A stretch of DNA of 64,000 nt, taken from assembly GCA_965248925.1 (NCBI GenBank), contig CBDFLE010000006.1:1472001-1536000 (forward strand), in the 5' to 3' direction. Shown piece by piece: positions 10,056-63,708 of this stretch (position 1 is the stretch's first letter; each line of letters begins with the position of its first letter). This stretch comes from Candidatus Multivoradales bacterium. Its GTDB lineage: Bacteria > Acidobacteriota > Thermoanaerobaculia > Multivoradales > J023. The translations under genes and the position numbers were made by a program. The notes under the pieces were generated by a model. It was given only the letters and a program-made list of their open reading frames with translations, ran no database searches and was not told the DNA's origin.

Positions 10056-12449
10056 TCAAATGTCCGGTTGAGCCTCTCCGGAGGTGTTCCGAGGCCCTGG
10101 GAAGGCCAGGCTCCGGGGTGGCGCCTTCTTGATCGCGAACCGCATCCGTAGCTCGGTGCCGGGGAAGTGGGTGGCGGTAGCGTTGAGTTCTTCGCAGACG
10201 GCGGCGATCGCCGCCGTCTTGTGGGGAGAGCTGAGCGGGTCGATGGAAAGGAGCAGCACGGTGTCGGTAACCTCCATATCGCCGCCGGCCGCGAAAGCGC
10301 TTTGGATCAGGGTGCGTCCCTCCTGCTCGGTGCGGCGGTAGTGGGGTGATAGGAGCCGGAGAAGATCACCTTCGGCCTGGTAGGCGACCATCTTGAGAAT
10401 ATCGGTGAGGTGCTTGCGCTCGACGGACAGCTTGATGACATCCGCTTCGACGACCTCTTGGACGGGGACGCGGACGGGGAGGGTCGCGCGCTGGTTCTCG
10501 AGTTCGGTGATCTGCTCTATCGCTGCCCGGACCCTGGCGGAGATGGCGGCGTTGGCGATCTTGAATCCGCGCATCGTGCGCCGCCGATCCTCGCGGTTTT
10601 CAAGAGCAGCGATCCCGATGTGGGCCCGGAGCTGCTCGAGATGTGCGTGAGCTTTGCGCAGCTCTGCATTGATCTTGCCGCGCTCGGGATTCGGCACATC
10701 GCGGGCGGCGTCCGCTGGCTCGGTGCCATAGTCCACCAGGGCATCGAGTGCGAATTCTTCGCGCAGGTATTTGAAGAAGTTCTCTTGCCTCCAACGATCG
10801 AACATGCGGTAGGCGACCTCGAGTGTGGAGAGGTCGCGGCGGGAGGTGATGATGGACGTCTGGTGGCCGTTGTCGCAGAGGCGGGTGACCTGGCGCAGGT
10901 ACAGCCGCTTGCGCTTCTTCCTCGGGCCATACTCGAGGTAGATACGCTGATCGGCGAGGAGGTACTCGAGCTTCCGCCCGTGGATCGTGTCCTTGATCTG
11001 CCCGAACTTGCTCAACGGCACCGGACGAAAGGGGGCCTTTCGGTATGTGAGGATGTCGAACTTCTTGGCGATGAGCTTCGCAAACAGCTTCGGGCTCCAA
11101 CCCCCACGGTCGAAGACGACGGTGACTCGCCGGTCTCCGAGTAGCTTTCGTACCTCTTCGAGAATGAGGGGAAGCATCGTCGCAAGCCCCTTGTTGGCCT
11201 CGGTGGGGACCACGAAGAGAGGCTCGCTCTCAGCATCGTTGACCCAGTAGTCGGTGGTGGCCGGCATCGCGATCCGCATCCGCGCTACGTGTGTCTTGGG
11301 AATCTCTCGGCCACCGTGGTAGGCGCGCACATGCCCGTCCACGTAGAGGAAGCCCATGGCATGGCCCCTGGTGGCGACCCGGCGCTGAGCGAGGGCGCGA
11401 CCGAGATCCGCGGCCAGGCCATGCGCGGCCAGCCGAGCGAGCTTGTTGCGCAAGGTTTTCACTTCCGGCGCTCGGTCGAGCCCGAGAAGCTGACCCAAAT
11501 GCCGGGGTGAGCGCTCCTTGAGCCCTTCGGGTCGCTTGACCCGCAACAGTGCCATCAGCAGCAGGGTTACCAGAGTGGTGCGCAGCCCATAGAAGGCCGG
11601 CCCGATGCTGCCGTACAGCTCCTGCGCGATGGAGAGCACGCCGCTGTCCACCAGGGCGGGAATCGCCAGCAGAGCACCGGCGCCCGGTAGCTGGGTCGCC
11701 GCTCCGAAGATCGGCGCCGCATCATCGAGGAATCCCAGCCTCGCCAGCAGCCGATCGCTGGCGCGATCCGCTGGATCGAGGTCCAGCGAGAGGGGAACCT
11801 GATCTTGCTCGGACGCAGAAGCGGACAGTTTTGGGTCCGCAGCCGCTGGGTCACCGCCACCCTCAGCGTCGAGCGCAAGATCCGCAGTTTTCAGGGGGCC
11901 GTCGACCTGCTGCTCATCAGAGGCGGACAGTTTTGGGTCCGCACTCTCGAAGGGCATCGTCATCTGCACTACCGACCGCTCTTTCCAGCCCAGGCGCTTG
12001 GCGAGCTTGCGAACGGCCTTCTCATCGATGCCCAGCCGCCGGCCAATCTCGCGATTCGACACACCCTCGGCCTTCCAGCCGTTGACCGCGTCCAGGCGGC
12101 CCTGCGCTACCCGAGACTGACCCCGGGGAAAACCGCGCGGCCGGCCCAGAGCAGCCAGCCCACCTTCTTCGAAGCGGCGCTGATTCCGGCGCACAGTCCG
12201 CACATCACAAGCGAACGCAAGGGCCACCTCGCGTTGCTGTGCCCAGCCCAATTCAACGAGACTCACCATCGCGTGGGCCTCGCCTGTCCTGTCGCCGGCA
12301 GCGAAGTGAGCGAGCGGCATGCCGCTGACCACCACCACCCGATAGCCGCCCCTCTGCTGGAGGCGGCAGCGGTCGTTGATCACCACAACCCCATCGGGGA
12401 CCCCGGCGTGGTCTGGGAACAGGACGGTGTGCTCGCTCGTCAGTGCCAT
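10056..12449 (-). CDS. Large transposase with N-terminal HTH regions and a DDE core
   Basis: FLYVDGH, VVFDRGGW and RWRQENFFKY motifs; HTH-like QREVALAFACDVRTVRR and SNREIGRRLGIDEKAVRK; fills the space between the TIRs. Confidence 0.88.
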   Translation of the reverse strand: MALTSEHTVLFPDHAGVPDGVVVINDRCRLQQRGGYRVVVVSGMPLAHFAAGDRTGEAHAMVSLVELGWAQQREVALAFACDVRTVRRNQRRFEEGGLAALGRPRGFPRGQSRVAQGRLDAVNGWKAEGVSNREIGRRLGIDEKAVRKLAKRLGWKERSVVQMTMPFESADPKLSASDEQQVDGPLKTADLALDAEGGGDPAAADPKLSASASEQDQVPLSLDLDPADRASDRLLARLGFLDDAAPIFGAATQLPGAGALLAIPALVDSGVLSIAQELYGSIGPAFYGLRTTLVTLLLMALLRVKRPEGLKERSPRHLGQLLGLDRAPEVKTLRNKLARLAAHGLAADLGRALAQRRVATRGHAMGFLYVDGHVRAYHGGREIPKTHVARMRIAMPATTDYWVNDAESEPLFVVPTEANKGLATMLPLILEEVRKLLGDRRVTVVFDRGGWSPKLFAKLIAKKFDILTYRKAPFRPVPLSKFGQIKDTIHGRKLEYLLADQRIYLEYGPRKKRKRLYLRQVTRLCDNGHQTSIITSRRDLSTLEVAYRMFDRWRQENFFKYLREEFALDALVDYGTEPADAARDVPNPERGKINAELRKAHAHLEQLRAHIGIAALENREDRRRTMRGFKIANAAISARVRAAIEQITELENQRATLPVRVPVQEVVEADVIKLSVERKHLTDILKMVAYQAEGDLLRLLSPHYRRTEQEGRTLIQSAFAAGGDMEVTDTVLLLSIDPLSSPHKTAAIAAVCEELNATATHFPGTELRMRFAIKKAPPRSLAFPGPRNTSGEAQPDI

Positions 12450-18487: not shown

Positions 18488-19480
18488 TCAGCCGGCAGCG
18501 CCCACCACCATCGAACAATCCGCCGCTAACCATGGTTCGGGGTCCGAGAACTCGACTTCACCCGACCGCGCCGTCGAGAGTCGACTCGCCCTGCTCTCGA
18601 CAACCGACTCACCGCTCGTGGCCGCGACCTCGGCGCGGGTAAAGATGTCCAGAGCCAGGGCAACAACCTGGCGCCCGGCACGGCGAATCGAACCCAAATG
18701 CTCCGCGCCATCGATGATCGTGGAACTGCCACCGGCTAACTTCGCCAGCTGGCGAGTGTCCTCGGGGCGAACTCCGCGGTCTTCGCCACCGCTGACATAG
18801 GCCACTGCTTCGAGACCCAGGAATGGAGCGTGCGAGCGAGCATCGAGGTAGCGATAGGCACTGCCGAAAGCATGCTCAAAGAGCTTGTAGAACGGCCAAC
18901 CTCGAGGAGCCATGCGGTGTGACCATTCGAGCAGATGAGGAGGAACATCCTCGAACATCGCCCCCACGGCGAGGGGGGAACGTGACAAAGCGGCATGCGC
19001 CCAATAGCCACCAGCACTAACCCCCCACAGGTGCAGCGGCAAGTCACCGGCGTAGTCGCGCAGCCAAAGCAACCCATCGGCAATATCGCGGTCGAAAAAG
19101 CCGCGGACCGGAGAGCTGCTGCCAAAACCGCTCAAGTCAAAGCTCAGCACATGGTACCCGGCCTGGCGGAGGGCCTGAATCCGACCGCGGGTGTGAAAAT
19201 AGGCTTTGCCCCAGGGTCGCCATGGATGTACCAACAGCACCGCACCCCGAGGTGCCGACGCCGGGAACAGCCGCGCCGCCAGACCACCACCCCGGCCCCG
19301 GCGGGCGATCTGAAAATCACAGTAGGGCCCCAGATGTGGCGGCGCTGGAGACTGCTCCTGACAGCCTAGACGCGGCGAAAGGGCCAAGAAAAGCCGGTTG
19401 GCGACAGTCTCTATGCGCCGCGAAGGACGGCTGGGAGGCAATAGCTCGGAGTTTCCCAGAGGTTGGGCTCGATCACTCAT
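18488..19480 (-). CDS. Alpha/beta-hydrolase
   Basis: FDLSGFGSS, GVSAGG nucleophile elbow, distal D and H (GAEH); start at MSDRAQ after GGAGG. Confidence 0.8.
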   Translation of the reverse strand: MSDRAQPLGNSELLPPSRPSRRIETVANRLFLALSPRLGCQEQSPAPPHLGPYCDFQIARRGRGGGLAARLFPASAPRGAVLLVHPWRPWGKAYFHTRGRIQALRQAGYHVLSFDLSGFGSSSPVRGFFDRDIADGLLWLRDYAGDLPLHLWGVSAGGYWAHAALSRSPLAVGAMFEDVPPHLLEWSHRMAPRGWPFYKLFEHAFGSAYRYLDARSHAPFLGLEAVAYVSGGEDRGVRPEDTRQLAKLAGGSSTIIDGAEHLGSIRRAGRQVVALALDIFTRAEVAATSGESVVESRASRLSTARSGEVEFSDPEPWLAADCSMVVGAAG

Positions 19481-19644
19481 CTTGTGGCCTCCAAGGCCAG
19501 AGATCCTAGGGACCCGCCGGCAAACAGGCAGGATGCTTGGGACCCTCCACGGAGCACATGGTAGATAGCAGTCGACCAGCGACCGACAGAGACCCAAGAC
19601 ACAGCAAGAGGCGGGTCATGGCGGGTTCTGGGAAAGTGAACATC

Positions 19645-19659
19645 GCAACACGCATGCCA
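19645..19659 (-). promoter_or_regulatory. Possible sigma-54 promoter for the hydrolase gene
   Basis: Minus strand TGGCATGCGTGTTGC is close to the consensus TGGCAC-N5-TTGC. Confidence 0.45.
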
Positions 19660-19904
19660 AGTTTAGGTCTCACTCAGCTTCTTAGGGCGGTTAGACTAGA
19701 GTGAGGTAAACCCTTTGTACACAGCAAGTTAGCAATCAGTTATCAAAGCCAGACAAAAGGCCTCGCGAACCACCGCCTACCAAGAGGGCTTTTCGCCTTG
19801 AGCACAAGAATCGGTTGGCCCCGACCGCCAACGTAGTGGGCACAGCGGCCAACATTTCCTCTACCAAGCAGTAGATCTCGAATACGCAAATGCGCATACC
19901 ATCC

Positions 19905-19933
19905 TTGACAAGCCTCGCTGCCGGAACTACGCT
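19905..19933 (+). promoter_or_regulatory. Sigma-70 promoter of the leader-proBA unit
   Basis: TTGACA-N17-TACGCT. Confidence 0.75.
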
Positions 19934-19940
19934 GGAGACC

Positions 19941-20051
19941 ATGAACGGCCTCCTCCTCACCACCTCGCACCTTCGCCTGCCGCTGGATCGCGGTCGTCGC
20001 CGCCCCTGCCTCTGCCGCAGTCCACGATGCCCGAGGCCGGGAGGACCGTAG
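19941..20051 (+). CDS. Putative proBA leader peptide, 36 aa, MNGLLLTTSHLRLPLDRGRRRPCLCRSPRCPRPGGP
   Basis: Lies between the promoter and a terminator; 6 Pro and 8 Arg codons, mostly in the 3' part. Confidence 0.65.
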   Translation: MNGLLLTTSHLRLPLDRGRRRPCLCRSPRCPRPGGP

Positions 20052-20079
20052 ACGCGCCACATCTGCTAGCGTCGACCAG

Positions 20080-20115
20080 AACCCCCGGCCAGCTCCAAGC
20101 TGACGGGGGTTTTTT
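20080..20115 (+). terminator. Intrinsic terminator (attenuator) upstream of proB
   Basis: AACCCCCG-GC-CAGCT-CCA-AGCTG-A-CGGGGGTT followed by a T-tract, 35 nt before the proB ATG. Confidence 0.85.
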
Positions 20116-20150
20116 GCTTCTGCAATGTCCGAACACAGAAAGACCTCACC

Positions 20151-21356
20151 ATGCGCAACTCCCACACCAAGACCGCTATCGCCGCCGCCGGCACCGCTCC
20201 CCAACCGGCCCGGCCGGCAGTAGCGGCGGCGCAGAGGATCGTCATCAAGCTCGGCAGTCGGGTGTTGACCAACGACGACGGCAGCCTGGCGCAGCAACGT
20301 ATGCGCGCCGTGGTGGCAACCGCCGCCGCGCTGCGCCACAGCGGTCGCCAGGTGTTGTTGGTGAGCTCGGGAGCCGTGTCCCTGGGCCGCGCTGAGTTGG
20401 GACTCGATCGCCTGCCTCCCAATCGCGGTCTGCGGCAAGCCTGTGCTGCGGTCGGACAGACCCGCTTGACCACCTTCTACCAACGGGTCAGTAGCCCTTT
20501 CGGCCTCAGCTGCGGCCAGCTCCTGGTCAGCCACCGCGATCTCAACGACCGCCAGCGAGCGCTGAATCTGCGTCGCATCCTCGATGCCCTGCTGGACCAG
20601 GGAGTGCTGCCGGTGCTGAACGAGAACGATGCCTTGGGCGACGACAGCGAGCCCGAAGCCACCCCCGCCTTCACCGACAACGATCGCCTGGCGGCCTTGG
20701 TAGCCAGCGAGGTTGCGGCCGACCTGCTGCTGCTGTTGACCGATGTCGAGGGTCTCTACGATCGCAACCCCAAGACCGACTCCACGGCGCGACTGCTGAG
20801 CCGCATCGATGATCTCGACGCTCTGCCACAGGTCGATCCTGAGCCTGGATCGGCCCTCGGTCGGGGCGGCATGCAGAGCAAGGTCGAAGCAGCGCGACTC
20901 GCTTGCCTGGGCGGCTGCCAGACGGTAATCGCCAACGGCCTGCGGGCCGGTGGTCTGTCGCAAGCGGTGGCCGGTGATGAGATCGGCACCTGGTTAGCAG
21001 CCAGTGGCTGGCTGGGGGCGCGCAAGCGTTGGATCGGTCTGACCGCGCCGTCTCGCGGCGCCCTCTACCTGGACGCTGGCGCGGTCGAGGCGCTGTGCGC
21101 ACACAACGCTTCCTTGCTGAGCGCTGGGGTCGAGCGCATCACCGGCCGCTTTCGCAGTGGCGATGTGGTCGAGCTGCGCTCTGCCGATGATCAGCTGATC
21201 GGCCGCGCCTTGGTGCGGCTGAACTCGACCGCCGCTCGCCGCCGCTGTGCCACAAGCAATCGTGCCGTCAGCAGCGCTGCCGTCAGTAGCCGTGCCGCCA
21301 GCGGCGGTGATCCAACCCTAATTTCGCGCACCGATATCGTGCTTCCCCCCAGCTGA
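20151..21356 (+). CDS. proB: Glutamate 5-kinase with PUA domain
   Basis: IVIKLGS, VSSGAV, AAVGQ, NENDA, DNDRLAA and GGMQSK. Confidence 0.95.
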   Translation: MRNSHTKTAIAAAGTAPQPARPAVAAAQRIVIKLGSRVLTNDDGSLAQQRMRAVVATAAALRHSGRQVLLVSSGAVSLGRAELGLDRLPPNRGLRQACAAVGQTRLTTFYQRVSSPFGLSCGQLLVSHRDLNDRQRALNLRRILDALLDQGVLPVLNENDALGDDSEPEATPAFTDNDRLAALVASEVAADLLLLLTDVEGLYDRNPKTDSTARLLSRIDDLDALPQVDPEPGSALGRGGMQSKVEAARLACLGGCQTVIANGLRAGGLSQAVAGDEIGTWLAASGWLGARKRWIGLTAPSRGALYLDAGAVEALCAHNASLLSAGVERITGRFRSGDVVELRSADDQLIGRALVRLNSTAARRRCATSNRAVSSAAVSSRAASGGDPTLISRTDIVLPPS

Positions 21357-21370
21357 AGGAGTGCCCTGCA

Positions 21371-22660
21371 ATGAAACTGGATCTAGCGCCCCTTGCTCAC
21401 CAAGTCCGTCAAGCTCAGCGCCAGCTCGCCAGCGCTCCGGGCAGCCAACGTTCGCAACTCTTGTGGAATCTCGCCACCCTGCTCGAGGAGCGCCGAGAAG
21501 AACTGCTGGCGGCCAACCGTCTGGACCTTGAAGCCGCCCGCCGAGACGGCCTGGCCCCCCCCCTACTACGCCGACTGGAGCTAACCCCGGCAAAAATCGC
21601 GACTCTCTGCCAAGGCGCCCGCCAACTCGCCGAACAAGGCGATCCTCTGGGCCAGGTGCTGCGCCGCACCGAACTCGATGACGGCCTTGAACTCACCCAA
21701 GTGCGCAGTCCCATCGGCGTGCTCTTGATCATCTTCGAGAGCCGCCCGGACGTGGTCATTCAGATCGGTTCCCTGGCCCTGCGCAGCGGCAATGGCGTCT
21801 TGCTCAAAGGAGGTTCGGAAGCCACTCAATCGAACCGCCTACTGGCTCAATGCCTGGCCGATGTGCTGGCCAGTGAAGATCTGCCAGGGGCGGCCGTCAG
21901 CCTGGTCGAAGGACGCCAGGCGGTGCACCAGCTACTCGAACTTGACTCGCTGATCGATCTGGTGATTCCGCGCGGCTCTGGAGAGCTGGTGCGATCGATC
22001 CAAAACGCTACTCGCATCCCGGTTTTGGGTCACGCTGAAGGCATCTGCCACCTCTATGTCGACGTCGACGCCGATCCACGGATGGCGACACACTTGGCGG
22101 TGGACGGCAAATGTGGCTATCCGGCGGCCTGCAACGCCACCGAGACCCTGCTGGTGCACGAGGACTTCCTCCCCCGGCTGCCCGCGGTGGGCCGAGCCTT
22201 GCTCGAAGCCGGGGTCGTGCTGCGTGCCGACGCCCGTGCCCGTGCCCACCTGAGCGCCGTCGAGCCCGCCAGCAGCAACGACTGGCAGACCGAGTGGGGT
22301 GGGCTTACCCTGGGGATCAAGACCGTCGCCAACTTGGCCGCGGCGGTCGACCACATCCACCGCTACGGCAGCGCCCACACCGAATCGATCGTTACAGACA
22401 ACGCCGCCACGGCAGAGAGCTTTCTACGCCAAGTCGACGCCGCCTCAGTGTTTCACAACGCCAGCACCCGCTTTGCCGACGGCTATCGCTACGGCCTCGG
22501 CGCCGAGGTGGGTATCTCTACCGGTCGCATTCACGCTCGCGGACCGGTTGGCGCCGAGGGCCTGCTGACCACTCGCTGGCTGCTGCGCGGCAGCGGCCAA
22601 GCGGCGGCGGACTATGGCGCCGGCAAACGGGCCTTCAAGCACCGCGTCCTCCCCAACTGA
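21371..22660 (+). CDS. proA: Gamma-glutamyl phosphate reductase
   Basis: IFESRP, LKGGSEA, VIPRG, ACNATETLL, NASTRFADG and HARGPVG. Confidence 0.95.
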   Translation: MKLDLAPLAHQVRQAQRQLASAPGSQRSQLLWNLATLLEERREELLAANRLDLEAARRDGLAPPLLRRLELTPAKIATLCQGARQLAEQGDPLGQVLRRTELDDGLELTQVRSPIGVLLIIFESRPDVVIQIGSLALRSGNGVLLKGGSEATQSNRLLAQCLADVLASEDLPGAAVSLVEGRQAVHQLLELDSLIDLVIPRGSGELVRSIQNATRIPVLGHAEGICHLYVDVDADPRMATHLAVDGKCGYPAACNATETLLVHEDFLPRLPAVGRALLEAGVVLRADARARAHLSAVEPASSNDWQTEWGGLTLGIKTVANLAAAVDHIHRYGSAHTESIVTDNAATAESFLRQVDAASVFHNASTRFADGYRYGLGAEVGISTGRIHARGPVGAEGLLTTRWLLRGSGQAAADYGAGKRAFKHRVLPN

Positions 22661-27540: not shown

Positions 27541-27569
27541 GGCGGCCAACGGGCCGCCATTTTTCTTTT
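27541..27569 (+). terminator. Intrinsic terminator after the TonB-dependent receptor gene
   Basis: GGCGGCC-AACG-GGCCGCC followed by ATTTTTCTTTT. Confidence 0.7.
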
Positions 27570-34004: not shown

Positions 34005-37202
<3,198 letters not shown>

Positions 37203-37253
37203 TTACAAGTAATGGCTAGGGGCGCTACGCGCCTCTCCCAGCCGCTGGAACGG

Positions 37254-38756
37254 CTAGTGATCGTGGGTTGCACCGGACTTCAAGATGTCGGCCTTGACAA
37301 GGAAACTGTTCTTCGAAACGTACCTCTGGCCCGCGGAAAGACCGGCCAACACTTCCACCCACTCGCCATCCCGCCGACCTAGTTCCAAGGGGCGGGCTTC
37401 GAACAAGTCTCCGTCCTGGATAAATACGACACTCCAATCCCGTAGCTGCTGGATCGACTCGGGCCGAACGGCCACTGGGACGGTGGTCTCCTCCCGGACG
37501 AGTTGGGTCGTGACGAAGACGCCGGGGCGCCACACCCCCTCAGGGTTGGGTATCGAGACGTGGGCGGTGGCGGTCCTGGTTTCCGCCCCGAGGATGGACC
37601 CCAGATAAGACACTGTTCCCGAGGTCTCGATGCCCAGCACGTCCGACTCCACTCGTACCTCCTGACCGACGCGAACCGATTTCAGATCCTGCCCGTACAC
37701 AGTGACCTTGGCGAGGACCGTGCTCAAGTCCGCAATCTTGAAGAGGTCAGCATAGCCTTCCACCACTTCTCCCAGGGCGACATGCTTCTCGATCACGACA
37801 CCCCGGATAGGCGCACGGAGTTGGTACCGTGCCAGATTCGCTTGCTGCCTGTCGGCGAGGCCCTTGATCTCCGCCGCTAGGAGTCCCAAGGACCTCAATT
37901 TCTGTTGGGCGCCATCGGTGCTGATTTCGGCTTCCTCAAGGGTTTGCTGGGCAGTCAGGTACTCCTCCAGCGCGGATATCCTTTTCGCCCAGAGCTGCTC
38001 TTCCCGCTCAAAAGATGCCTGAGCAAACTTCAGCTGGTGCAGAGCCTGGATAAACACCAACTTGGAATCTGCGAGTTCTTGGCTATCGATGACGGCGATG
38101 ACCTCTCCCCGCGCTACCGCGTCGCCCAAGTTCGTTCGCACTTCCGTGACCACTCCACTGAAGCGCGGCACGACGTGCGCCACCCGGTCGGGATTGAGGG
38201 CGATCTCACCGGGAAGCTGGAAGGCGAGCCGCAGGCGGGCGGGCCCCGCCTCTTCGACGACAATCCCAGAGTCACTAACGGCTTCCGGGCTCATCTCGAC
38301 CCGCGCTTCGATCTGGGAGTACCCCATGCGGTAGGTTCTTCCTCTCCATTTCGCTTCGATTTCAACAGCGAAGGAATGCGGCTCTTCGACCACTTTGTCT
38401 CCGAGGAGATATCCACCCTTTGGCTGGAAGGCGATCACATCAACTCGGCCACCCAGCCTTTGGAGATGGATAGTCAGCTGCACCTCTTCCGGAACAATTT
38501 CCTCGCCGGCTTCGTACAGGTAGACTCGGAATTCCGGGGGCACGCCACTCTCGTAGATGGTGACCTCTATCTGGAGGTCCTCTTCTGCGAGGAGCCGACC
38601 CCGGTGGGGGCCTTTAACCGCATCTGCACTGACCTCTGGCGCAGCGGTATTCCGTGGTCCTGTACCGTTCCCCCCGCAAGAAGAGAGAAGCGGCAGAGTC
38701 AACACCGTTAGCCCGAGAAGTACGCGCTTGGCAGCCGTTCCGTTCATTCTGATCAT
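37254..38756 (-). CDS. czcB: CzcB-type periplasmic adaptor with N-terminal extra domain
   Basis: KGPHRGRLL, EPHSF, lipoyl halves, C-terminal GATHDH. Confidence 0.88.
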   Translation of the reverse strand: MIRMNGTAAKRVLLGLTVLTLPLLSSCGGNGTGPRNTAAPEVSADAVKGPHRGRLLAEEDLQIEVTIYESGVPPEFRVYLYEAGEEIVPEEVQLTIHLQRLGGRVDVIAFQPKGGYLLGDKVVEEPHSFAVEIEAKWRGRTYRMGYSQIEARVEMSPEAVSDSGIVVEEAGPARLRLAFQLPGEIALNPDRVAHVVPRFSGVVTEVRTNLGDAVARGEVIAVIDSQELADSKLVFIQALHQLKFAQASFEREEQLWAKRISALEEYLTAQQTLEEAEISTDGAQQKLRSLGLLAAEIKGLADRQQANLARYQLRAPIRGVVIEKHVALGEVVEGYADLFKIADLSTVLAKVTVYGQDLKSVRVGQEVRVESDVLGIETSGTVSYLGSILGAETRTATAHVSIPNPEGVWRPGVFVTTQLVREETTVPVAVRPESIQQLRDWSVVFIQDGDLFEARPLELGRRDGEWVEVLAGLSAGQRYVSKNSFLVKADILKSGATHDH

Positions 38757-40165
38757 GGCAAATCTCCGTCTTGTGTTGGCTCTACAGAATCGAGCCGGAC
38801 GCCGATGAGGCGTTCCACGTCGACCACTGCCTTGTGGTAATCCTCAGCCACCCGCAAGTATTGACGGCGTGCCTCGAAAAGGATTCGTTGGGAATCGAGA
38901 ACGTCCAAGAGGCTGAATCTCCCAAGTCGGTATCCTTCGTTGACGGCCTCGAAGGCATTCTGCGCCCCTGGAAGCACGGTGTTCCGAAGGGCCGTTACTT
39001 CCGAATAGGCCGAGGAGAGCAGCTGGTAGCTCTCGGCCAGAGCGACTCGCAGGCGAAGTTCCGTGGCACGGCGTCTCTCCGCCGCTCGCTCCACTTCAGA
39101 ACGCGCTGCGAGGACTTCACCTTGCTTGCGGTCGAAGAGAGGAAGAGGAATGGAGAACCCAACGAGGAGAGCGTCGGTGTCTCGACCGAAGGTCTCGTAG
39201 CGCCTGACTCCGGCTCCCACCGTCAAATCTGGGACACGGGAAGCCTTCGCTAGGTCGACCTCCGCCTGGCGGAATAACACCTCCCCTGCCGAAAGAGACA
39301 GCAGCGGATTCTCAACGAGAAGCTGCGTCAATCGCTGGAGGGCCGGAAAGGTAAAGAACGTATCGAAATCACCTACGACAAATCTAAACAGCGGCTCCGT
39401 GTTCCCCCAAGCCGCGGAGAGAACCTTGCGGGACGAATCCAGCTGCCGCCGTGTTCGATCGAGCCCTATCCGGGCCGTGGAGAGAGCCACGTTCGCTTTG
39501 ATCTCTTCGACAGGAGATTCCTTTCCAGCCTCTACTCTTGCCAAGACCGCGTCGGCGCTCTTTTCCGCGAGCTGCACTATCTCTTGCGCGAGGACGACGC
39601 GTTGCTGTGCGCCCAACACTTCGATGAACGACCTTGAGACTCGGCGCAGGAGGTCGAGACGCTCGATCTCGTAGGTCCACTCGGCCAGGTCTAACTCAAG
39701 AGCTGCAACCTGCTTTCTTGCCGATCGCTTGCCACCTAGCTCGACCAATTGCCCGAGTTGAATCGTCGTCTGAACGCCGCCGGTGATGTCGTCTCGTCCC
39801 GTCCCCAGGTTTTCCACCAGCGTGCTCAGAGACGGATTGGGGAGGAGTCCCGCTTGGAGGACCCTGGCCTCCTGGGCGCGCACGCCCCAGGCGAACTCCG
39901 CAAGGTCCGGACTCCGGAGAAGCGCCAGAGCTATAGCCTGCACGAGTGTCAGCTCCTCGGTTGGCTCTACCGCTTCTGGAGAGCCCGATTCGCGCTCTTC
40001 CAGAGAAGATCCAAGAGCCGCAGCCGTGCCCGGTGGGTGCGGTGATTCCCACCTTCGCAAGTTTGGTTCCTCCGCCAGAGCAGATGCTGCCGGCGAAGAA
40101 AGTAGCAGTAGGAAAAGCCCTGTCCCGCTTAGGAAGCAGAGTCTCCTGTCACTTCGAAAGATCAT
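38753..40165 (-). CDS. czcC: CzcC/TolC outer-membrane factor
   Basis: QLVELGGKR, SIPLPLFDRKQG, GY..GRFSLLDVLD. Confidence 0.88.
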   Translation of the reverse strand: MIFRSDRRLCFLSGTGLFLLLLSSPAASALAEEPNLRRWESPHPPGTAAALGSSLEERESGSPEAVEPTEELTLVQAIALALLRSPDLAEFAWGVRAQEARVLQAGLLPNPSLSTLVENLGTGRDDITGGVQTTIQLGQLVELGGKRSARKQVAALELDLAEWTYEIERLDLLRRVSRSFIEVLGAQQRVVLAQEIVQLAEKSADAVLARVEAGKESPVEEIKANVALSTARIGLDRTRRQLDSSRKVLSAAWGNTEPLFRFVVGDFDTFFTFPALQRLTQLLVENPLLSLSAGEVLFRQAEVDLAKASRVPDLTVGAGVRRYETFGRDTDALLVGFSIPLPLFDRKQGEVLAARSEVERAAERRRATELRLRVALAESYQLLSSAYSEVTALRNTVLPGAQNAFEAVNEGYRLGRFSLLDVLDSQRILFEARRQYLRVAEDYHKAVVDVERLIGVRLDSVEPTQDGDLP

Positions 40166-52457: not shown

Positions 52458-53267
52458 ATGCAGGTACCTGTGCCGAAGAAGGCTCCAGCAGCCGTTGAGC
52501 CCCCACCGGGGATCTGCCAGCAATGTGGCGGGACCGGTTGGAAAATAGTTGCAGATGGCGGCAACGGTACTGCTGTCGCTTGCGATTGCAGCAAGAGTCG
52601 GCGCGGGGTCGACCTCTTAGCTTTGGCGCAGATTCCCCAGCGTTACCAGCATTGCCGGCTGCGCAATTTCAAGACCGACTACTCGGAGTCGCAGCAGGCC
52701 AGCAGTCTGACACGGGCCCGAGAGGCGAGCGAACTCTACGTCCGCGACTTCGTCCCCGACGGCCGCGGTAGTACCACCGGAGGGTTAATCTACGTCGGCC
52801 CACCGGGAGTGGGCAAGACCCATCTGGCGGCCGCCGTGCTGCGCGAATTGGTGGAGCGCTACCGCGTGCGCGGCCGGTTCGCCGAGTTCACCGACCTGCT
52901 GCACCAGATCCAGGCGACCTTCAACAATTCTTCCCGGCGCACCCGCGAAGAGATCATGCGACCGGTGATCGACGCCGAGATTTTGGTGCTCGACGAGCTG
53001 GGCGCGCAGAAGCCCAGCCAGTGGGTGATGGATGTCCTCTACCTGATCATCAACACCCGCTACACCCGCAAGCTGCCGACCCTCTTCACCTCCAACTTCG
53101 ACCTACCTAGTACAGCTACCCACCAGCGCGACGGTAGCGCCAATCTCGACACCCGGATATCTGCCCTATTAGTCAGCCGGATTTTCGAGATGGCGCGCAA
53201 GGTCAAGGTGAGCGGCCTGGACTTCCGGCGCGAGGTCAAGCACTTTCAGAACTTGCCCGGCAAATGA
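52458..53267 (+). CDS. DnaC/IstB-like ATP-binding protein
   Basis: N-terminal CxxC...CxC; GPPGVGKTHL, LVLDELG, INTRY, TSN. Confidence 0.85.
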   Translation: MQVPVPKKAPAAVEPPPGICQQCGGTGWKIVADGGNGTAVACDCSKSRRGVDLLALAQIPQRYQHCRLRNFKTDYSESQQASSLTRAREASELYVRDFVPDGRGSTTGGLIYVGPPGVGKTHLAAAVLRELVERYRVRGRFAEFTDLLHQIQATFNNSSRRTREEIMRPVIDAEILVLDELGAQKPSQWVMDVLYLIINTRYTRKLPTLFTSNFDLPSTATHQRDGSANLDTRISALLVSRIFEMARKVKVSGLDFRREVKHFQNLPGK

Positions 53268-55700: not shown

Positions 55701-58304
55701 ATGTGTCTTGGACCTTGGCATAGCAGTCCGTCGGAGCTGGCTCCGAAGCTCCAGTCTGGGATTTCGATTCCTATCCGGCGCAGCGGCGAGACCTTCTGGC
55801 GCACCGCCGCCGCGGTGCTCGCACATGGTGAGCCGGGCAAGCTCGACGCCCTCATCCAGGGTCCGCTACGGGCGGCTGTCGCCCTGCGCTGGCAGCCGAA
55901 GAGTGGCCTCCTGCACGCAACCTGCACCTGCTCTTTCTTCACCCAATGGCGGGGGATCTGCGCCCACATCTGGGCAACGATCTTAGCAGCGGACGAGTCC
56001 TACAATTTCGGCGGCAGCTACACCAGCGACAGCTGGATTGATTCCCCAAGACAAGCGCTGCGACTGGCTCCAGGTTTCGAGACTCCGGCCGATCGGTGGA
56101 ATTCCCTGGCTTCCTCAGACTCCACTGCCTGGCGGAAGCGCCTGAAGGACTTTGGCAGCTCGCTGCTAGAGCAGCTTCCCCGCCCTGAAGAGAAGACCTG
56201 GCCCGAGCAGCGGCGGATCTTCTACCTCCTAGACCTCGAGCGATCCAACCAACAAGATGCCGTGGTCGTCCAGCTGGGCTACCGGACTCCTCAACCCAAC
56301 GGCGAGCTCGGTCTACTAGAGCTGAGAGTGCCCGAGGCAACGTCCGTGGGCCAGCTACCGGATCCAGAGGATCGTCTGCTGCTGGCGATGATCAGCGGCT
56401 CTTCAACGGAGGTTGGTTTCTCGGGACGGTTCACCCACTCCGCGGGCTCGCTAGAGAGCTTCTCAGTTCCCACGGTGATCCAAGCTGAGTGGTTGAAGGG
56501 AGCTGCTGACACTGGCCGCTTGCTAACGTTCGAGAGCGACTGCCAGGACGCCAAGCCGCTGTGCTGGGATCCGAGCGAAGCCTGGCGGATGGAAGTGAGA
56601 GTCGAGGAGCGGAGCAGTGATCTTCGACTCGCGGGCTACCTCGTTCGACACGATCAGGTACTGCCTCTGACCCAACCGGAGCTGCTGATCTCGACCGGGC
56701 TGGTCGGCGACCGGGGTCAGATCGCTCTGTTGGAGCGAGGCAAGAACTCTCCCTGGGTCCGCTTCCTCCGCCAACAGGGGGAGTTGCTGATCCCGGCTGA
56801 GCAGAGGCACCTGCTGGTCGAGCAGCTGCTCGGTCTGCCCGAACCGCCGGCGATCCAACTACCCGAGGATCTCGACCTCGAAGAGGCTCTCGGTGTCCCT
56901 CAGCCGCGGCTCGACCTCTTCGCCTCTTTCTCCCGATCGACGAGGAGAACCAATATTTTCGGTTTGTTGATCTTCGACTACGGTGACCAGCAGGTGACCT
57001 GGCGCGACCACCACAGGGCCATCCTCCAAACCGAGCCCCGGCGAATTTTGCGCCGCGACGCCGCAGCCGAGAACGAGTTCTTGGAGCGCCTCAAGGAGCT
57101 TGGAGCAAAGCCCGGGAGAGCTCGCCTCGACTACCGCGATCGGTACAACATTCGCGTCTACGAATTCTTCCTGCAAGAGCTGGAGGAGACGCTGTGCAGC
57201 GAAGGCTGGGTAATCAGGTTTGTCTCTGGACCCTACCGGACGAAGAGTTCGCTGAGCTTGCAAGCCACCAACCACTCGACTGGCTTCGAGCTGCGCGGCA
57301 CGGTCAGTTTCGACGATCAAGTGGCAAACTTGCCCGAACTCTTGCAAGCCCTCCAATGCCACAGGAGTTTTCTGCACTTCGATGATAGAAGCATTGGCCT
57401 GATACCCAAGGAGTGGCCCACGAAGTTCTGCCCGCTGGTAGAGGTCGGAAACCTCTACCAGCGCTGCATGCGTTACGACCGCAGCCAGCTGGGTCTGCTG
57501 GTTGGGCTACTCAGTATCGTGCCGGACATCGAGATCGACCAGAGCTTGAATGAGGCTCATCAAGAGTTCGCCAGGCCTTCCCAGGCTCAGGCCGGCCAGA
57601 TTCCAGAATCTCTCCAAGCAGCATTGAGCGAGGAGCAGAAGGAAGGTCTGGGTTGGCTGCAAGGCCTGTGCTCCTCGGGCTATGGTGGCTGTCTGATCGA
57701 GGACGATGCTGGAAGTAGAAAGGAACAAATCCTCGCCCTGCTGGAGGAGCGGCGTCAGTCTCTCGATAGCTCAACAGAGCGCCACAGGCAGCCGCCGAGG
57801 CCCTCGCTGATCGTCGTGCCCAAGTCTCTACTCTCCACCTGGCATCGCGAGATCGGCCGATTGATCCCCGAGGTTTTGCTGCTGACCTATGCCGGGCCTC
57901 GCCAGCATCGGCGGCGGCACCAGTTGGGGGTGTACGACATCGTGCTCACTACCTACCCCATCTTGCGGCAGGAGATCTCCCGCTTTGAGGAAATGAGATT
58001 CGACTACCTTGTGCTCGACGAGGCACAGGCGATCAAGAAGCACCAATCAGTCACCACCGAGACCTGCCGTGCGGTTCCAGCTCGCCACCGAGTGGCCCTA
58101 CTTGGAAAGTCAGACGCTGATCGGCTGAGCGGTTTGCTGAGCATTCTCGACTTCCTCAACCCGGGCTTATTCGGCTCAGACAAGCGGGAGCGAATACCCC
58201 GGGGAATCCGCGTCAGCCGGCTCAGCGACCTGACCTCTGGAAGGGACTCAGAGCAGGCTCTCTGGGCCAACCTTCTCAAGCCCTTTATCCACCAAGCCAA
58301 GTAA
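55701..58304 (+). CDS. SWIM zinc finger plus degenerate SNF2 N-lobe protein (paralog 1)
   Basis: CTC...CAHIWA; LIVVPKSL, LTTY, LVLDEAQAIK, LDFLNPG; ends LKPFI with no helicase C domain. Confidence 0.8.
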   Translation: MCLGPWHSSPSELAPKLQSGISIPIRRSGETFWRTAAAVLAHGEPGKLDALIQGPLRAAVALRWQPKSGLLHATCTCSFFTQWRGICAHIWATILAADESYNFGGSYTSDSWIDSPRQALRLAPGFETPADRWNSLASSDSTAWRKRLKDFGSSLLEQLPRPEEKTWPEQRRIFYLLDLERSNQQDAVVVQLGYRTPQPNGELGLLELRVPEATSVGQLPDPEDRLLLAMISGSSTEVGFSGRFTHSAGSLESFSVPTVIQAEWLKGAADTGRLLTFESDCQDAKPLCWDPSEAWRMEVRVEERSSDLRLAGYLVRHDQVLPLTQPELLISTGLVGDRGQIALLERGKNSPWVRFLRQQGELLIPAEQRHLLVEQLLGLPEPPAIQLPEDLDLEEALGVPQPRLDLFASFSRSTRRTNIFGLLIFDYGDQQVTWRDHHRAILQTEPRRILRRDAAAENEFLERLKELGAKPGRARLDYRDRYNIRVYEFFLQELEETLCSEGWVIRFVSGPYRTKSSLSLQATNHSTGFELRGTVSFDDQVANLPELLQALQCHRSFLHFDDRSIGLIPKEWPTKFCPLVEVGNLYQRCMRYDRSQLGLLVGLLSIVPDIEIDQSLNEAHQEFARPSQAQAGQIPESLQAALSEEQKEGLGWLQGLCSSGYGGCLIEDDAGSRKEQILALLEERRQSLDSSTERHRQPPRPSLIVVPKSLLSTWHREIGRLIPEVLLLTYAGPRQHRRRHQLGVYDIVLTTYPILRQEISRFEEMRFDYLVLDEAQAIKKHQSVTTETCRAVPARHRVALLGKSDADRLSGLLSILDFLNPGLFGSDKRERIPRGIRVSRLSDLTSGRDSEQALWANLLKPFIHQAK

Positions 58305-58413
58305 CAGGGATAACAATTTCGCTGCTGCTATTCGGCGAAGGGGAAAAAAGTCTGATTTAGAGCATTCACCTCAGATGGCAGCGGCAGCAGCAGCAGCAGC
58401 AGCAGGTAAGAAT

Positions 58414-61038
58414 ATGAGCAGCAGCAGGTTCGACTCGAAACCGCACCAGCTCCCGAAGCTGGCCCCATTGCTTCAAATCCAGATCCCGAGAGCCACTCAG
58501 CGGCGCGGAGAGAGCTTCTGGCGCTCAGCGGGGGCAATCCTCGTTGACCGGGCTCCGGGGCAGGTCGGTGCGGTTGTCTACGCCGTCGAGAGCTGCGCGG
58601 TTGCCTTGCGCTGGCGGCCGGAGAGCGGTCTCCTCGAAGGTACATGCACCTGTGCCAACTTCGCCCGACAAGGAGAGATCTGCGCCCATATCTGGGCAAC
58701 GATTCTGGCAGCGGACGAGACGGGGAGCTTCGAAGAGTGGTTCGACACCCACGATGGCCCGGAGTCCGACGGTCTTGAGCCGCTCCTGAAGGCGGGCGGA
58801 GAGCCACCCACAGATCTTCAGGACCTCTTATCCTCTTCCGCTTCCGCCAGATGGCAAAATCACCTGATGGACTTTCGCTTCTCGCTACCCCAAGCCAAAG
58901 CAAAGAGAAGAGCCTGGCCTGATGAGCGGCAGCTTTTCTACTTGTTAGATCTCGAACGGTCGAATCAGCACGACGCGGTAATCATCCAGCTCGCGTATCG
59001 GACTCGCCAAGAGGATGGCGAGTGGGGCTCGCTCGAGTCAAGCGTAGCAGAACGCGAGACTATCGGCCGGCTAGCGGACGCTACGGATTGTTTACTCTTA
59101 GCGATGATTGCCGGCGCCTCGGCGCAACTCGGACACCGTGGGCACTTCAGCACCTCGAAGTCTAAGGGCTCTCCGGAGAGGCTGTTGGTTCCCGCGGCGG
59201 TCCAGGCCGAGTGGTTGCAACAAGCTGCGGAGACCAGACGCCTGCTGTGCTTCACCACCGAATGGCAGGACGCCGAGCCGCTGAGCTGGGATCCTGAGCA
59301 TGCCTGGCGGCTGGAAGTGAGGGTAGAGGACCAAGGAAGCGCGCTGCTCCTCGCGGGCTTCTTGGTGGGGCACGCTCAGCTATTACCGCTCAGTACACCG
59401 GAGCTACTGACCACCTCCGGACTGATGGTTCTTCGTCGCCAAGCGACCTTCGTGGAGCAAGGCAAGGGTTCGGTCTGGATCAAATTCCTGCGCCAACAAG
59501 AGGAACTGTACGTTCCGGCCGAGCAGAGGTACCAGCTGATCGAAGCGTTGGAAAACCTACCGCCGCCGCCGGCCCTCCATCTACCTGAGGATCTACGCCT
59601 CGATCAGATCCTGGGAACTCCCCAACCCCAGCTGGTGATAGTCGACTCCGACCAGCCTTGGGGGAAAGAGACCTTCAACTCCTGGCTGGAGTTTCACTAC
59701 GGCGAAAGGTTCATCAGATGGCGCTCCCAACAGCGGGGCATGGTGCAGGGCGAGCCACCCCGGGTTGTGCTGCGCGACCTCGAGGCAGAAGCGGGTTTCG
59801 TCCGCCGTCTGCAAGATCTTGGAATAGGAGGCCTGCGAAACGCTGACAAGTACTTGGGACTGTTTTCCCTGCCGCGGGCCGCTACTCGACTGCTGACGCT
59901 GATCGATACGCTGGCCAGCGAAGGCTGGTCGCTCAGCTTCTCCGGCGACCACCAGCTGGGTAGCTCCTTGAGCTTGCAGATCGCTGCCAGCTCAAGCGGC
60001 GGTTTCGAGCTGCGGGGTACGGCCAGCTTCGGCAGCAACAAGTCCGTCGAGTTGCCAGAGCTGCTACAAACCCTCGGTGAGGGCAAAAGATTTGTACCCG
60101 TCGATGCGAAAACCCGTGGCGTGGTACCCGTAGACTGGCTCACCAAGCTCGGCCCGCTGGCCGGGATAGGAGAGGTCGACGGGCATCGCCTGAGATTCGA
60201 CAATAACCAACTGGGACTGCTCGACGCTCTCCTCTCTCTCGAACTCGGGATCGAGCTTGACGAAGCCCTCCTGCGGGCACATCAGCGCTTCGTCAAGCTC
60301 GGCCAGGCCCAGCCGAGTCCAGTACCCGAAACCGCTGAAGCTTGCTTGCGCGAAGAGCAGGAGCAATGCCTGGGCTGGCTGCATGGCTTACGCTCAGCAG
60401 GCTTTGGCGCCTGTTTGATCGAGGACGTTGGGGAAAGCGGCAAGGCGCAGATTCTGGCTCTACTGGAAGCCCGCCGGCAAGTAAGAGGCAACTCGTCAAG
60501 ATCAAAAAAGCAGCAGCCTGGCCCTTCGCTAGTCGTTGTTCCCAAGGCCCTCCTCGCAAGCTGGAGTAACCAGATCGGCCTGTTCACCCCGCAGATGCGA
60601 GTGCTGACCTACACTGAGCCACCTCAGCGCCGGTTGCAGCACCTCCAGCAAAGTTGCTTGGCAGACCACGACCTCCTGCTCACCACCTATCCCATCCTAC
60701 GCTCGGATATCTCCCAACTGGCCAGGGTGGAATTCGACTACGTGGTGCTCGACCAAGCACAGGCCATCAAGAGTGCCGGATCGGCGACCACTCGGGCCTG
60801 CCACTCGCTGACCGCCCGCCACCGCTTGGCCCTACTCGACACCCAGGCCACAGAGCGGTTGGACAACTTGCTGGGAGTTCTCGACTTTCTCAATCCTGGC
60901 CTCTTCGGCCCCGACCGGTGGCTGAAACTGCCCAAGGCAATCCGCACCGGGCGTCTCCCCAACCCAGCCACCGCCGAGCCCCAGCTCGCTCTCATCGCCA
61001 GTTTGATCCGTCCCTTCATCCGCTGGGCCGCGGGATAG
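58414..61038 (+). CDS. SWIM zinc finger plus degenerate SNF2 N-lobe protein (paralog 2)
   Basis: Collinear with paralog 1; DQAQ in place of DEAQ; alternative start 58375. Confidence 0.8.
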   Translation: MSSSRFDSKPHQLPKLAPLLQIQIPRATQRRGESFWRSAGAILVDRAPGQVGAVVYAVESCAVALRWRPESGLLEGTCTCANFARQGEICAHIWATILAADETGSFEEWFDTHDGPESDGLEPLLKAGGEPPTDLQDLLSSSASARWQNHLMDFRFSLPQAKAKRRAWPDERQLFYLLDLERSNQHDAVIIQLAYRTRQEDGEWGSLESSVAERETIGRLADATDCLLLAMIAGASAQLGHRGHFSTSKSKGSPERLLVPAAVQAEWLQQAAETRRLLCFTTEWQDAEPLSWDPEHAWRLEVRVEDQGSALLLAGFLVGHAQLLPLSTPELLTTSGLMVLRRQATFVEQGKGSVWIKFLRQQEELYVPAEQRYQLIEALENLPPPPALHLPEDLRLDQILGTPQPQLVIVDSDQPWGKETFNSWLEFHYGERFIRWRSQQRGMVQGEPPRVVLRDLEAEAGFVRRLQDLGIGGLRNADKYLGLFSLPRAATRLLTLIDTLASEGWSLSFSGDHQLGSSLSLQIAASSSGGFELRGTASFGSNKSVELPELLQTLGEGKRFVPVDAKTRGVVPVDWLTKLGPLAGIGEVDGHRLRFDNNQLGLLDALLSLELGIELDEALLRAHQRFVKLGQAQPSPVPETAEACLREEQEQCLGWLHGLRSAGFGACLIEDVGESGKAQILALLEARRQVRGNSSRSKKQQPGPSLVVVPKALLASWSNQIGLFTPQMRVLTYTEPPQRRLQHLQQSCLADHDLLLTTYPILRSDISQLARVEFDYVVLDQAQAIKSAGSATTRACHSLTARHRLALLDTQATERLDNLLGVLDFLNPGLFGPDRWLKLPKAIRTGRLPNPATAEPQLALIASLIRPFIRWAAG

Positions 61039-61224
61039 GGCTAGGTGAATCACTACCCTTGCAATCTGCCGGTCGCACTTTTCATATTGCAAGAAATACA
61101 GAGGTACTTCAGCAGCTGACCACAGCTCTCTGGAACTCACAATCCACTGACAACAAAGGTCTTTTGTAGAGGCGCATGGCGTGCGCCCCTACACAGTCCT
61201 GCGAGCCGACACGCTGGCAACCAC

Positions 61225-63612: not shown

Positions 63613-63708
63613 GGCTTCTCCTTCAGAGGCGCATCCAATTCTCGGACCGAGGCGGCACAAGACACTTGCGGCGAGGCAGACTATGGTTCATCGCGAGTCT
63701 ACCGACTC

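Follow-up and report, generated by a model that had tools for sequence, protein, structure and literature searches.

A promoter, a short open reading frame and an intrinsic terminator precede proBA in a Candidatus Multivoradales bacterium: a candidate transcription attenuator

In the genome of a Candidatus Multivoradales bacterium (Acidobacteriota; Thermoanaerobaculia), the proline biosynthesis genes proB and proA are preceded by a leader region, and the architecture of the locus is promoter, short open reading frame (ORF), intrinsic terminator, proBA. The region lies within a stretch of 64,000 nucleotides (nt) of contig CBDFLE010000006.1 (assembly GCA_965248925.1, positions 1,472,001 to 1,536,000), which is referred to here as the window, has a G+C content of around 62 % and provides the numbering for all coordinates given below. 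Our data suggest that the promoter–leader–terminator unit probably gates proBA expression by attenuation of one kind or another. As to the switch, translation of the ORF, which would be leaderless, comes first among the candidates, albeit as a doubtful one. Taken as a whole, the reading that we prefer, i.e. that of a proBA transcription attenuator most likely switched by translation of a leaderless ORF of 36 codons, with the signal left unassigned, is a tentative one, to which we would give a little less than an even chance.

Both genes of the operon were assigned by matches well above the respective cut-offs. The proB gene (20151–21356, + strand), encoding glutamate 5-kinase, matched TIGR01027 with 309.3 bits (cut-off 186), in agreement with an original prediction that had been made from the letters alone and had placed proB behind the leader, while proA (21371–22660, + strand), encoding glutamate-5-semialdehyde dehydrogenase, matched NF001221 with 506.8 bits (cut-off 289). 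On the + strand, the two genes are closely spaced, with a gap of only 14 nt; a GAAGGAG motif is located directly 5′ of proA, and no Shine–Dalgarno (SD)-like motif was found 5′ of the proB ATG. The neighbouring gene 5′ of proBA (18488–19597, − strand), which encodes an alpha/beta-fold hydrolase according to a domain match, is oriented divergently, leaving an intergenic region of around 550 nt before proB. Since this gene is located on the opposite strand, the leader terminator closes no upstream gene.

The promoter-like site at 19905–19933 (+ strand) consists of TTGACA (19905–19910) and TACGCT (19928–19933) separated by 17 nt, exactly the letters that had been proposed as a promoter. It is the single match to TTGACA-N16-18-TAnnnT on either strand of the window, in which 0.20 matches would be expected; when the entire window was shuffled, at least one such match appeared in 16 of 100 cases. 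TTGACA alone is not enriched (14 occurrences vs 19 expected), and the −10 hexamer, despite conforming to TAnnnT, equals TATAAT at three of the six positions only. A simple, stricter scan for promoters and terminators flagged neither this site nor the bulged terminator described below. Considering that the hexamer ends at 19933, i.e. 7 nt before the AUG of the ORF, whose A is at 19941, and that a spacing of 6–8 nt after the −10 hexamer is usual, we infer a transcript start at around 19940–19941, on or beside the AUG. With such a start, the ORF would, if translated, be leaderless, and the GGAG at 19934–19937, which is just 3 nt away from the ATG, would not be transcribed. As calculated from the local composition, an ATG would fall by chance into a stretch of 5 nt around the predicted start with a probability of approximately 0.05, and the coincidence may thus be regarded as mildly suggestive.

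The intrinsic terminator (20082–20115, + strand) has a stem of 20082–20094 and 20098–20109, interrupted by a G-G mismatch and a single bulged G, and ends in a run of six U residues (20110–20115). It is located 30 nt 3′ of the stop codon of the ORF and 35 nt 5′ of proB, and its hairpin (20082–20109) has a folding energy of −18.3 kcal/mol, or of −22.9 kcal/mol when the flanking A-U pairs are included. A strong intrinsic terminator before proB had been predicted, and in a scan of both strands of the window it turned out to be the strongest canonical one, i.e. a compact hairpin followed by a T-run. Comparable terminators are found just after long ORFs, at 27541–27558 (+ strand) and at 61199–61158 (− strand); the organism therefore appears to use such signals at gene ends. 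The latter follows a gene for an aldehyde dehydrogenase family protein of 811 amino acids (aa) (61225–63660, − strand), the size of which would fit a fusion containing the proline-catabolic pyrroline-5-carboxylate dehydrogenase.

Between the U-tract of the leader terminator and the ATG of proB there are only 35 nt, in which reading by eye revealed neither a TAnnnT hexamer nor any other recognizable promoter. The simplest reading is, therefore, that proBA is transcribed from the site at 19905–19933 through the terminator. The same elements could in principle belong to an independent small RNA (sRNA) of around 175 nt, or to the mRNA of a small protein, with a terminator of its own, with proBA being expressed by constitutive leak-through or from an unrecognized promoter. 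sRNA genes typically consist of a promoter and a terminator with nothing conserved between them, the lack of an Rfam match and of excess structure in the leader (see below) would fit such a gene, and attenuator transcripts can double as sRNAs, as described for rnTrpL in excerpts of the literature. However, this explanation is confronted with the short gap lacking a TAnnnT, and it leaves proB without any promoter in the entire divergent intergenic region, and we consider it rather unlikely. Far less credible still is a mere chance constellation, in which hexamers, ORF and pairings would be fortuitous in GC-rich DNA and the hairpin would not be a regulated terminator: while the length of the ORF, its proline (Pro) and arginine (Arg) content and the alternative pairings are each individually within the range of chance, the unique promoter match and the best terminator of 64 kb are found together within 210 nt, correctly oriented and directly before an operon without another promoter.

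The short ORF (19941–20051, + strand; MNGLLLTTSHLRLPLDRGRRRPCLCRSPRCPRPGGP, stop codon TAG at 20049–20051) was read in the sequence, and its putative peptide, ending in RGRRRPCLCRSPRCPRPGGP, contains six Pro and eight Arg residues, as had been described originally. An in-frame ATG at 19890 would extend it to 53 aa, with a start that lies 5′ of the promoter; no Pfam family was found for this extended version or for a 55-aa ORF. Frame +2 of the same DNA (19943–20053) was rejected as a leader peptide, since ATG, GTG and TTG are all absent from it before 20027 and the frame stays open across the terminator and into proB.

For the pairing logic of a classical attenuator, the segment of interest is GAGGCCGGGAGGACCG (segment 2; 20033–20048, + strand), which comprises the final five codons of the ORF before the stop. 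It has two upstream partners on the + strand, i.e. a C-rich segment A (the GGCCUCCUCCUC region; 19945–19958), with which it is paired in the minimum-free-energy fold, and segment 1, or B (19989–20012), corresponding to codons 17–24 (RGRRRPCL). The respective duplexes amount to −23.1 kcal/mol (A:2) and −26.6 kcal/mol (1:2). Downstream, 20035–20044 of segment 2 can pair with 20082–20090 in the 5′ arm of the terminator (nine pairs and one bulge; 2:3 duplex, −20.3 kcal/mol), at the expense of the duplex between the two terminator arms (3:4, −22.4 kcal/mol). At the core of the 2:3 duplex, GGCCGGG (20035–20041) is indeed complementary to CCCGGCC (20084–20090), as had been noticed before. The upstream partner named in the same context, CGGTC...CCC..GCCTC, exists as well, although at 19991–20012 and not at 20001–20022, i.e. 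10 nt upstream of the position given.

On this basis, the preferred reading would work as follows. A promoter of the sigma-70 type at 19905–19933 would start a leader RNA of around 175 nt on the AUG at 19941 or a few bases away from it, and this RNA would end at the terminator (20082–20115), so that proBA would be expressed only by those polymerases that read through. Without a ribosome, segment 2 would be held by the upstream C-rich segments and the terminator would form. A ribosome that has reached the end of the ORF would cover segment 2, and the terminator would again form. Only when one ribosome or several queued ones are detained at around codons 17–28 would segment 2 be left free to pair with the 5′ arm of the terminator, thus leading to read-through.

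The mechanism was evaluated by a ribosome-position scan, in which the ribosome footprint was masked for each A-site codon in turn and the RNA made before the emergence of the 3′ arm of the terminator was folded. The readout was the energy gained when the 5′ arm of the terminator was allowed to pair, and the contrast was that between the best stall and the stop-codon or ribosome-free state. The leaders thrL, trpL, hisL, leuL and pheL of E. coli served as controls. With one ribosome, the gain peaked on the known regulatory codons and fell to around 0 at the stop codon in all five of them; without a ribosome it was also around 0, except for thrL (−2.4). The control contrasts were reached by none of 60 shuffles each for thrL, trpL, leuL and pheL, and by one of 60 for hisL.

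Applied to the candidate leader, the same scan yielded the first of several results that weigh against switching by translation of the ORF. The one-ribosome profile was not classical and showed a trough at R17–P22: the gain was −6.9 to −8.6 kcal/mol at codons 2–8, only −1.0 to −3.4 kcal/mol at codons 11–27 (including RGRRRP), −6.4 kcal/mol at P28, −9.0 kcal/mol at P31, −5.0 kcal/mol at the stop codon and −1.0 kcal/mol without a ribosome. The peaks at P28 and P31 shift with the assumed footprint, and the minimum and the contrast (4.0) were reached by 34 and 15 of 100 shuffles, respectively. The scan fails because segment A re-captures segment 2 when a lone ribosome is located on segment 1. A second model, in which all RNA behind the ribosome is masked, represents trailing or initiating ribosomes and is plausible for a leaderless 5′ end. 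It returned a classical profile, with −10 to −14.4 kcal/mol at codons 20–28, 0 at codons 31–33 and −4.8 kcal/mol at the stop codon; its minimum was reached by three and its contrast (9.6) by two of 90 shuffles. The peak covers the codons for R R P C L C R S P (three Arg, two Pro and two Cys). Under this masked model, the peaks of thrL, trpL, leuL and pheL fell on the regulatory codons, and their contrasts were reached by 0, 1, 2 and 0 of 40 shuffles, respectively. In contrast, hisL failed (19 of 40 shuffles), and the masked model is therefore no clean test. Moreover, it was adopted after the one-ribosome model had failed, so that its p-value of approximately 0.02 has to be discounted.

The terminator was retained in the minimum-free-energy fold whichever of the 37 ribosome positions was tested, being thermodynamically ahead by 13–22 kcal/mol at each of them. 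As to the duplexes, 1:2 was equalled in 90 of 1000 shuffles. For the 2:3 antiterminator, an equal was obtained in 77 of 1000 leader sequences with shuffled dinucleotides and in 213 of 1000 stretches of 138 nt drawn at random from the window. Hence, the alternative pairings are present but weakly distinguished from chance, and of the trp-like logic of 1:2, 2:3 and 3:4 pairings that had been proposed, the comparable energies hold on paper, while the duplexes rise only weakly above chance. Folding of the full leader, which had been suggested as a check, left the terminator intact (z = −1.95), but no excess structure is left when the terminator is removed (z = −0.37; 66 of 200 shuffles folding as well or better), and a riboswitch-like structure was rejected on the same grounds. 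The region 5′ of the ORF (19700–19940) also folds no better than its shuffles (z = +0.48). Finally, the length of 36 codons is about what is expected here, considering that stop codons are rare and that an ORF of this length is, by calculation, roughly a coin-flip from a given ATG, and the 36-aa peptide had no match at E ≤ 0.001 among 1.84 billion representative proteins, a result that is uninformative given the short and biased query.

A search for known RNA elements by means of Rfam 15 covered the whole window, and no family reached its gathering score. Around the leader (19600–20400), the T-box covariance model found nothing even at E ≤ 10; the best match there below the gathering score (E = 0.085) was the terminator hairpin on the other strand.

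Attenuation of proBA could also be factor-dependent, with the ORF being irrelevant, i.e. an RNA- or DNA-binding protein might act on the leader, or Rho on a C-rich untranslated RNA. The region 19900–20017 (+ strand), which includes the promoter and the ORF up to two thirds of its length, is C-rich and resembles a Rho loading site; with its low G content, it reaches a C/G ratio of 2.1–2.3 in 78-nt windows, compared with a 95th percentile of 1.76 and a 99th percentile of 2.21 for the entire window, the median of which is 1.09. This C-richness may, however, simply reflect strand composition. In addition, the 10-mer ACACAG[C/A]AAG occurs in three direct copies on the + strand of the intergenic region (19599–19608, 19719–19728 and 20133–20142), all 5′ of proB, while both strands of the whole window hold only four matches when up to one mismatch is allowed. 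The third copy is found 9 nt before the proB ATG, at the usual position of an SD motif, and the repeat may represent a putative regulator site. On the other hand, two of the three copies are located 5′ of the predicted promoter, and no binding protein or motif family was identified. Control by such a factor thus appears unlikely, to about the same degree as the independent small transcript and if anything a shade more so.

If, as in the preferred reading, the ORF is the sensor, the question arises as to what it senses. The original prediction was that ribosomes stall at the Pro codons when prolyl-tRNA is scarce, resulting in read-through into proBA. Proline would be the natural signal for genes that make proline, leader ORFs that sense Pro codons are known (mgtP and the mgtA leader, in the available part of PMC3641672), P22 and P28 are found where a stall leaves segment 2 free, and four Pro within nine residues, as seen here, are found in just 4.3 % of 93 ATG-ORFs of 30–45 aa in the window, a comparison set in which most ORFs are surely non-coding. 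Yet the leader contains 40.6 % C, corresponding to 0.165 Pro per codon, so that 5.9 Pro are expected in 36 codons as compared to the six observed; the prediction itself carried the warning that Pro codons are common by chance in GC-rich DNA. There is no Pro run and not even a pair of adjacent Pro codons, and frame +2 holds ten Pro in 37 codons, including PPP, so that the CCN codons reflect the composition of the DNA and not the frame of the ORF. Furthermore, segment 2 contains half of the six Pro codons (P31, P33 and P36), with P28 being located 11 nt before it. A ribosome stalled at one of these three therefore covers the antiterminator strand, in line with the absent gain at codons 31–33 in the masked model. 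None of 80 distant proB loci listed (see below) combines a Pro-rich leader ORF with a subsequent terminator. In view of the compositional Pro count, the missing run and the position of half of the Pro codons, the idea of read-through by stalling at Pro codons does not hold up, and we consider it very doubtful; proline specificity of the leader is not supported.

The stalls that free segment 2 extend up to approximately codon 28, and the effective stretch of codons 17–28 encodes five Arg, two Pro, two Cys, one Gly, one Leu and one Ser. In contrast to the E. coli controls, no single amino acid dominates it. Among the 93 ATG-ORFs, 8.6 % match the ORF in its Pro fraction and 8.6 % in its Arg fraction, three reach the summed Pro and Arg fraction, and only the leader ORF itself reaches both fractions separately; four Arg within five residues are found in 2.2 %, compared with 11.8 % for four of any one residue within five. 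With regard to the geometry modelled above, arginine may suit at least as well as proline, and it would make metabolic sense if the shared glutamate-semialdehyde/ornithine node of arginine and proline were the link. It is tempting to speculate that a functional leaderless, ribosome-mediated proBA attenuator of a deep-branching lineage might read arginine or mixed Arg/Pro codons, such as RGRRRP in segment 1, but in this specific form we consider it unlikely.

Among the closest known systems are the five E. coli attenuators, which the leader resembles in the order of promoter, short ORF, intrinsic terminator and biosynthetic operon, in three mutually exclusive pairings of similar strength, and in a stop codon placed right after segment 2, so that a finishing ribosome covers the latter. 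It differs from them in that it has no run of cognate codons, comprises 36 codons rather than 14–28, contains a second partner of segment 2 (19945–19958), which cancels the one-ribosome switch, and carries an ORF predicted to be leaderless. A leaderless arrangement has precedents in Actinobacteria. In the excerpts available to us, transcription of the C. diphtheriae gene for the ilvB leader peptide begins at the start of the leader, and leaderless poly-Cys short ORFs are described as attenuating operons in mycobacteria. Like the present leader, for which the start is only predicted, these have their transcript start on the start codon of the sensory ORF and an amino acid operon thereafter, whereas the mycobacterial ORFs, as far as these excerpts go, have a clear poly-Cys tract and unmask a downstream ribosome-binding site without involving a terminator.

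The same genes are under premature termination in B. subtilis, in which proBA and proI are preceded by a T-box and respond to proline supply, as reported in the accessible part of PMC9245794. This system differs from the present one in sensing uncharged tRNA-Pro through a conserved RNA, no match to which was found in the leader. Short leader ORFs with Pro codons are found in Salmonella, i.e. mgtP of mgtCBR with three consecutive Pro codons and a separate mgtA leader ORF with four, and Pro limitation alters the folding of these leader RNAs and the transcription downstream (PMC3641672, in part). According to the same excerpt, however, they control Mg2+ transport and virulence genes and not proline synthesis, and mgtP, with 17 codons, three consecutive conserved Pro and an SD sequence of its own, contrasts with the scattered Pro codons, at compositional expectation, seen here.

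Evidence from relatives is sparse. The closest ProB among 5.8 billion proteins is 57 % identical, and the named matches are from Thermoanaerobaculia or Acidobacteriota metagenome-assembled genomes (MAGs). A profile search of genome contigs, based on an alignment of 38 ProB sequences, returned at least 578 stretches, and the 80 loci listed from it show 33–44 % identity and are derived from many phyla, with the window's own genome and close relatives not among them. A hairpin followed by a T-run within 400 nt 5′ of proB was present in 20 of these 80 loci, in most cases inside an upstream co-directional ORF. Three loci initially matched a Pro-rich leader and were rejected, as one (L008) has an ORF of just 6 aa, another (L080) shares its stop codon with an upstream ORF of 300 aa, and in the third (L069) no terminator follows the ORF.

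The Rfam search at the gathering score gave no match in the 16 of the 80 listed loci to which it was applied. In the Cohnella mopanensis locus (L051, 2234–2454), a T-box precedes proB with 61.8 bits (E = 3.4e-13); as this is below the Rfam 15 gathering score of 93, it is missed at the default threshold and found only by E-value, and it serves as the positive control for the T-box search of the leader. In a Sedimentisphaerales MAG (L043, 2275–2333), proB is preceded at a distance of 36 nt by an extended, irregular hairpin (−19.5 kcal/mol) with a TTTT run behind it; the end of the upstream gene lies around 180 nt earlier, and no Rfam match was obtained at the gathering score. This hairpin may be another proB leader terminator.

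The leader, seen in a single genome, has a convincing architecture and represents a reasonable candidate, rather than an established case, of a further member of a class already known. To our knowledge, transcriptional control of proBA is poorly known outside the Firmicutes, in which the T-box acts. Attenuators have been predicted in Acidobacteria, with almost no functions assigned to them. Consistent with the original remark that no described proBA leader of this kind was known to its author, our full-text literature searches, the coverage of which excludes subscription-only papers, returned no leader-peptide attenuator for proB or proBA. If the leader is a functional leaderless, ribosome-mediated attenuator, it would be the first one described for proline biosynthesis, and a reading of Arg or Arg/Pro codons would tie arginine supply to the branch from glutamate to proline. 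A working attenuator would furthermore bring the proline pathway, and a phylum that has been little studied, under the known range of control by leader ORFs, and would be an additional example in which an intrinsic terminator is coupled to a sensory ORF that is leaderless.

Apart from the proBA locus, the window harbours two adjacent long genes at 55701–58304 and 58375–61038 (+ strand), encoding proteins of 867 and 887 aa, each with a C-terminal SNF2-related helicase domain. Mobile elements are represented by a gene at 10056–12449 (− strand), encoding a Transposase_29 family protein with helix-turn-helix domains, and by a separate gene for an IstB-like ATPase at 52458–53267 (+ strand). Finally, a three-gene efflux operon of the resistance-nodulation-division (RND) type is located at 34005–40165 (− strand), encoding an outer membrane factor, an HlyD-type adaptor and an AcrB-family pump.

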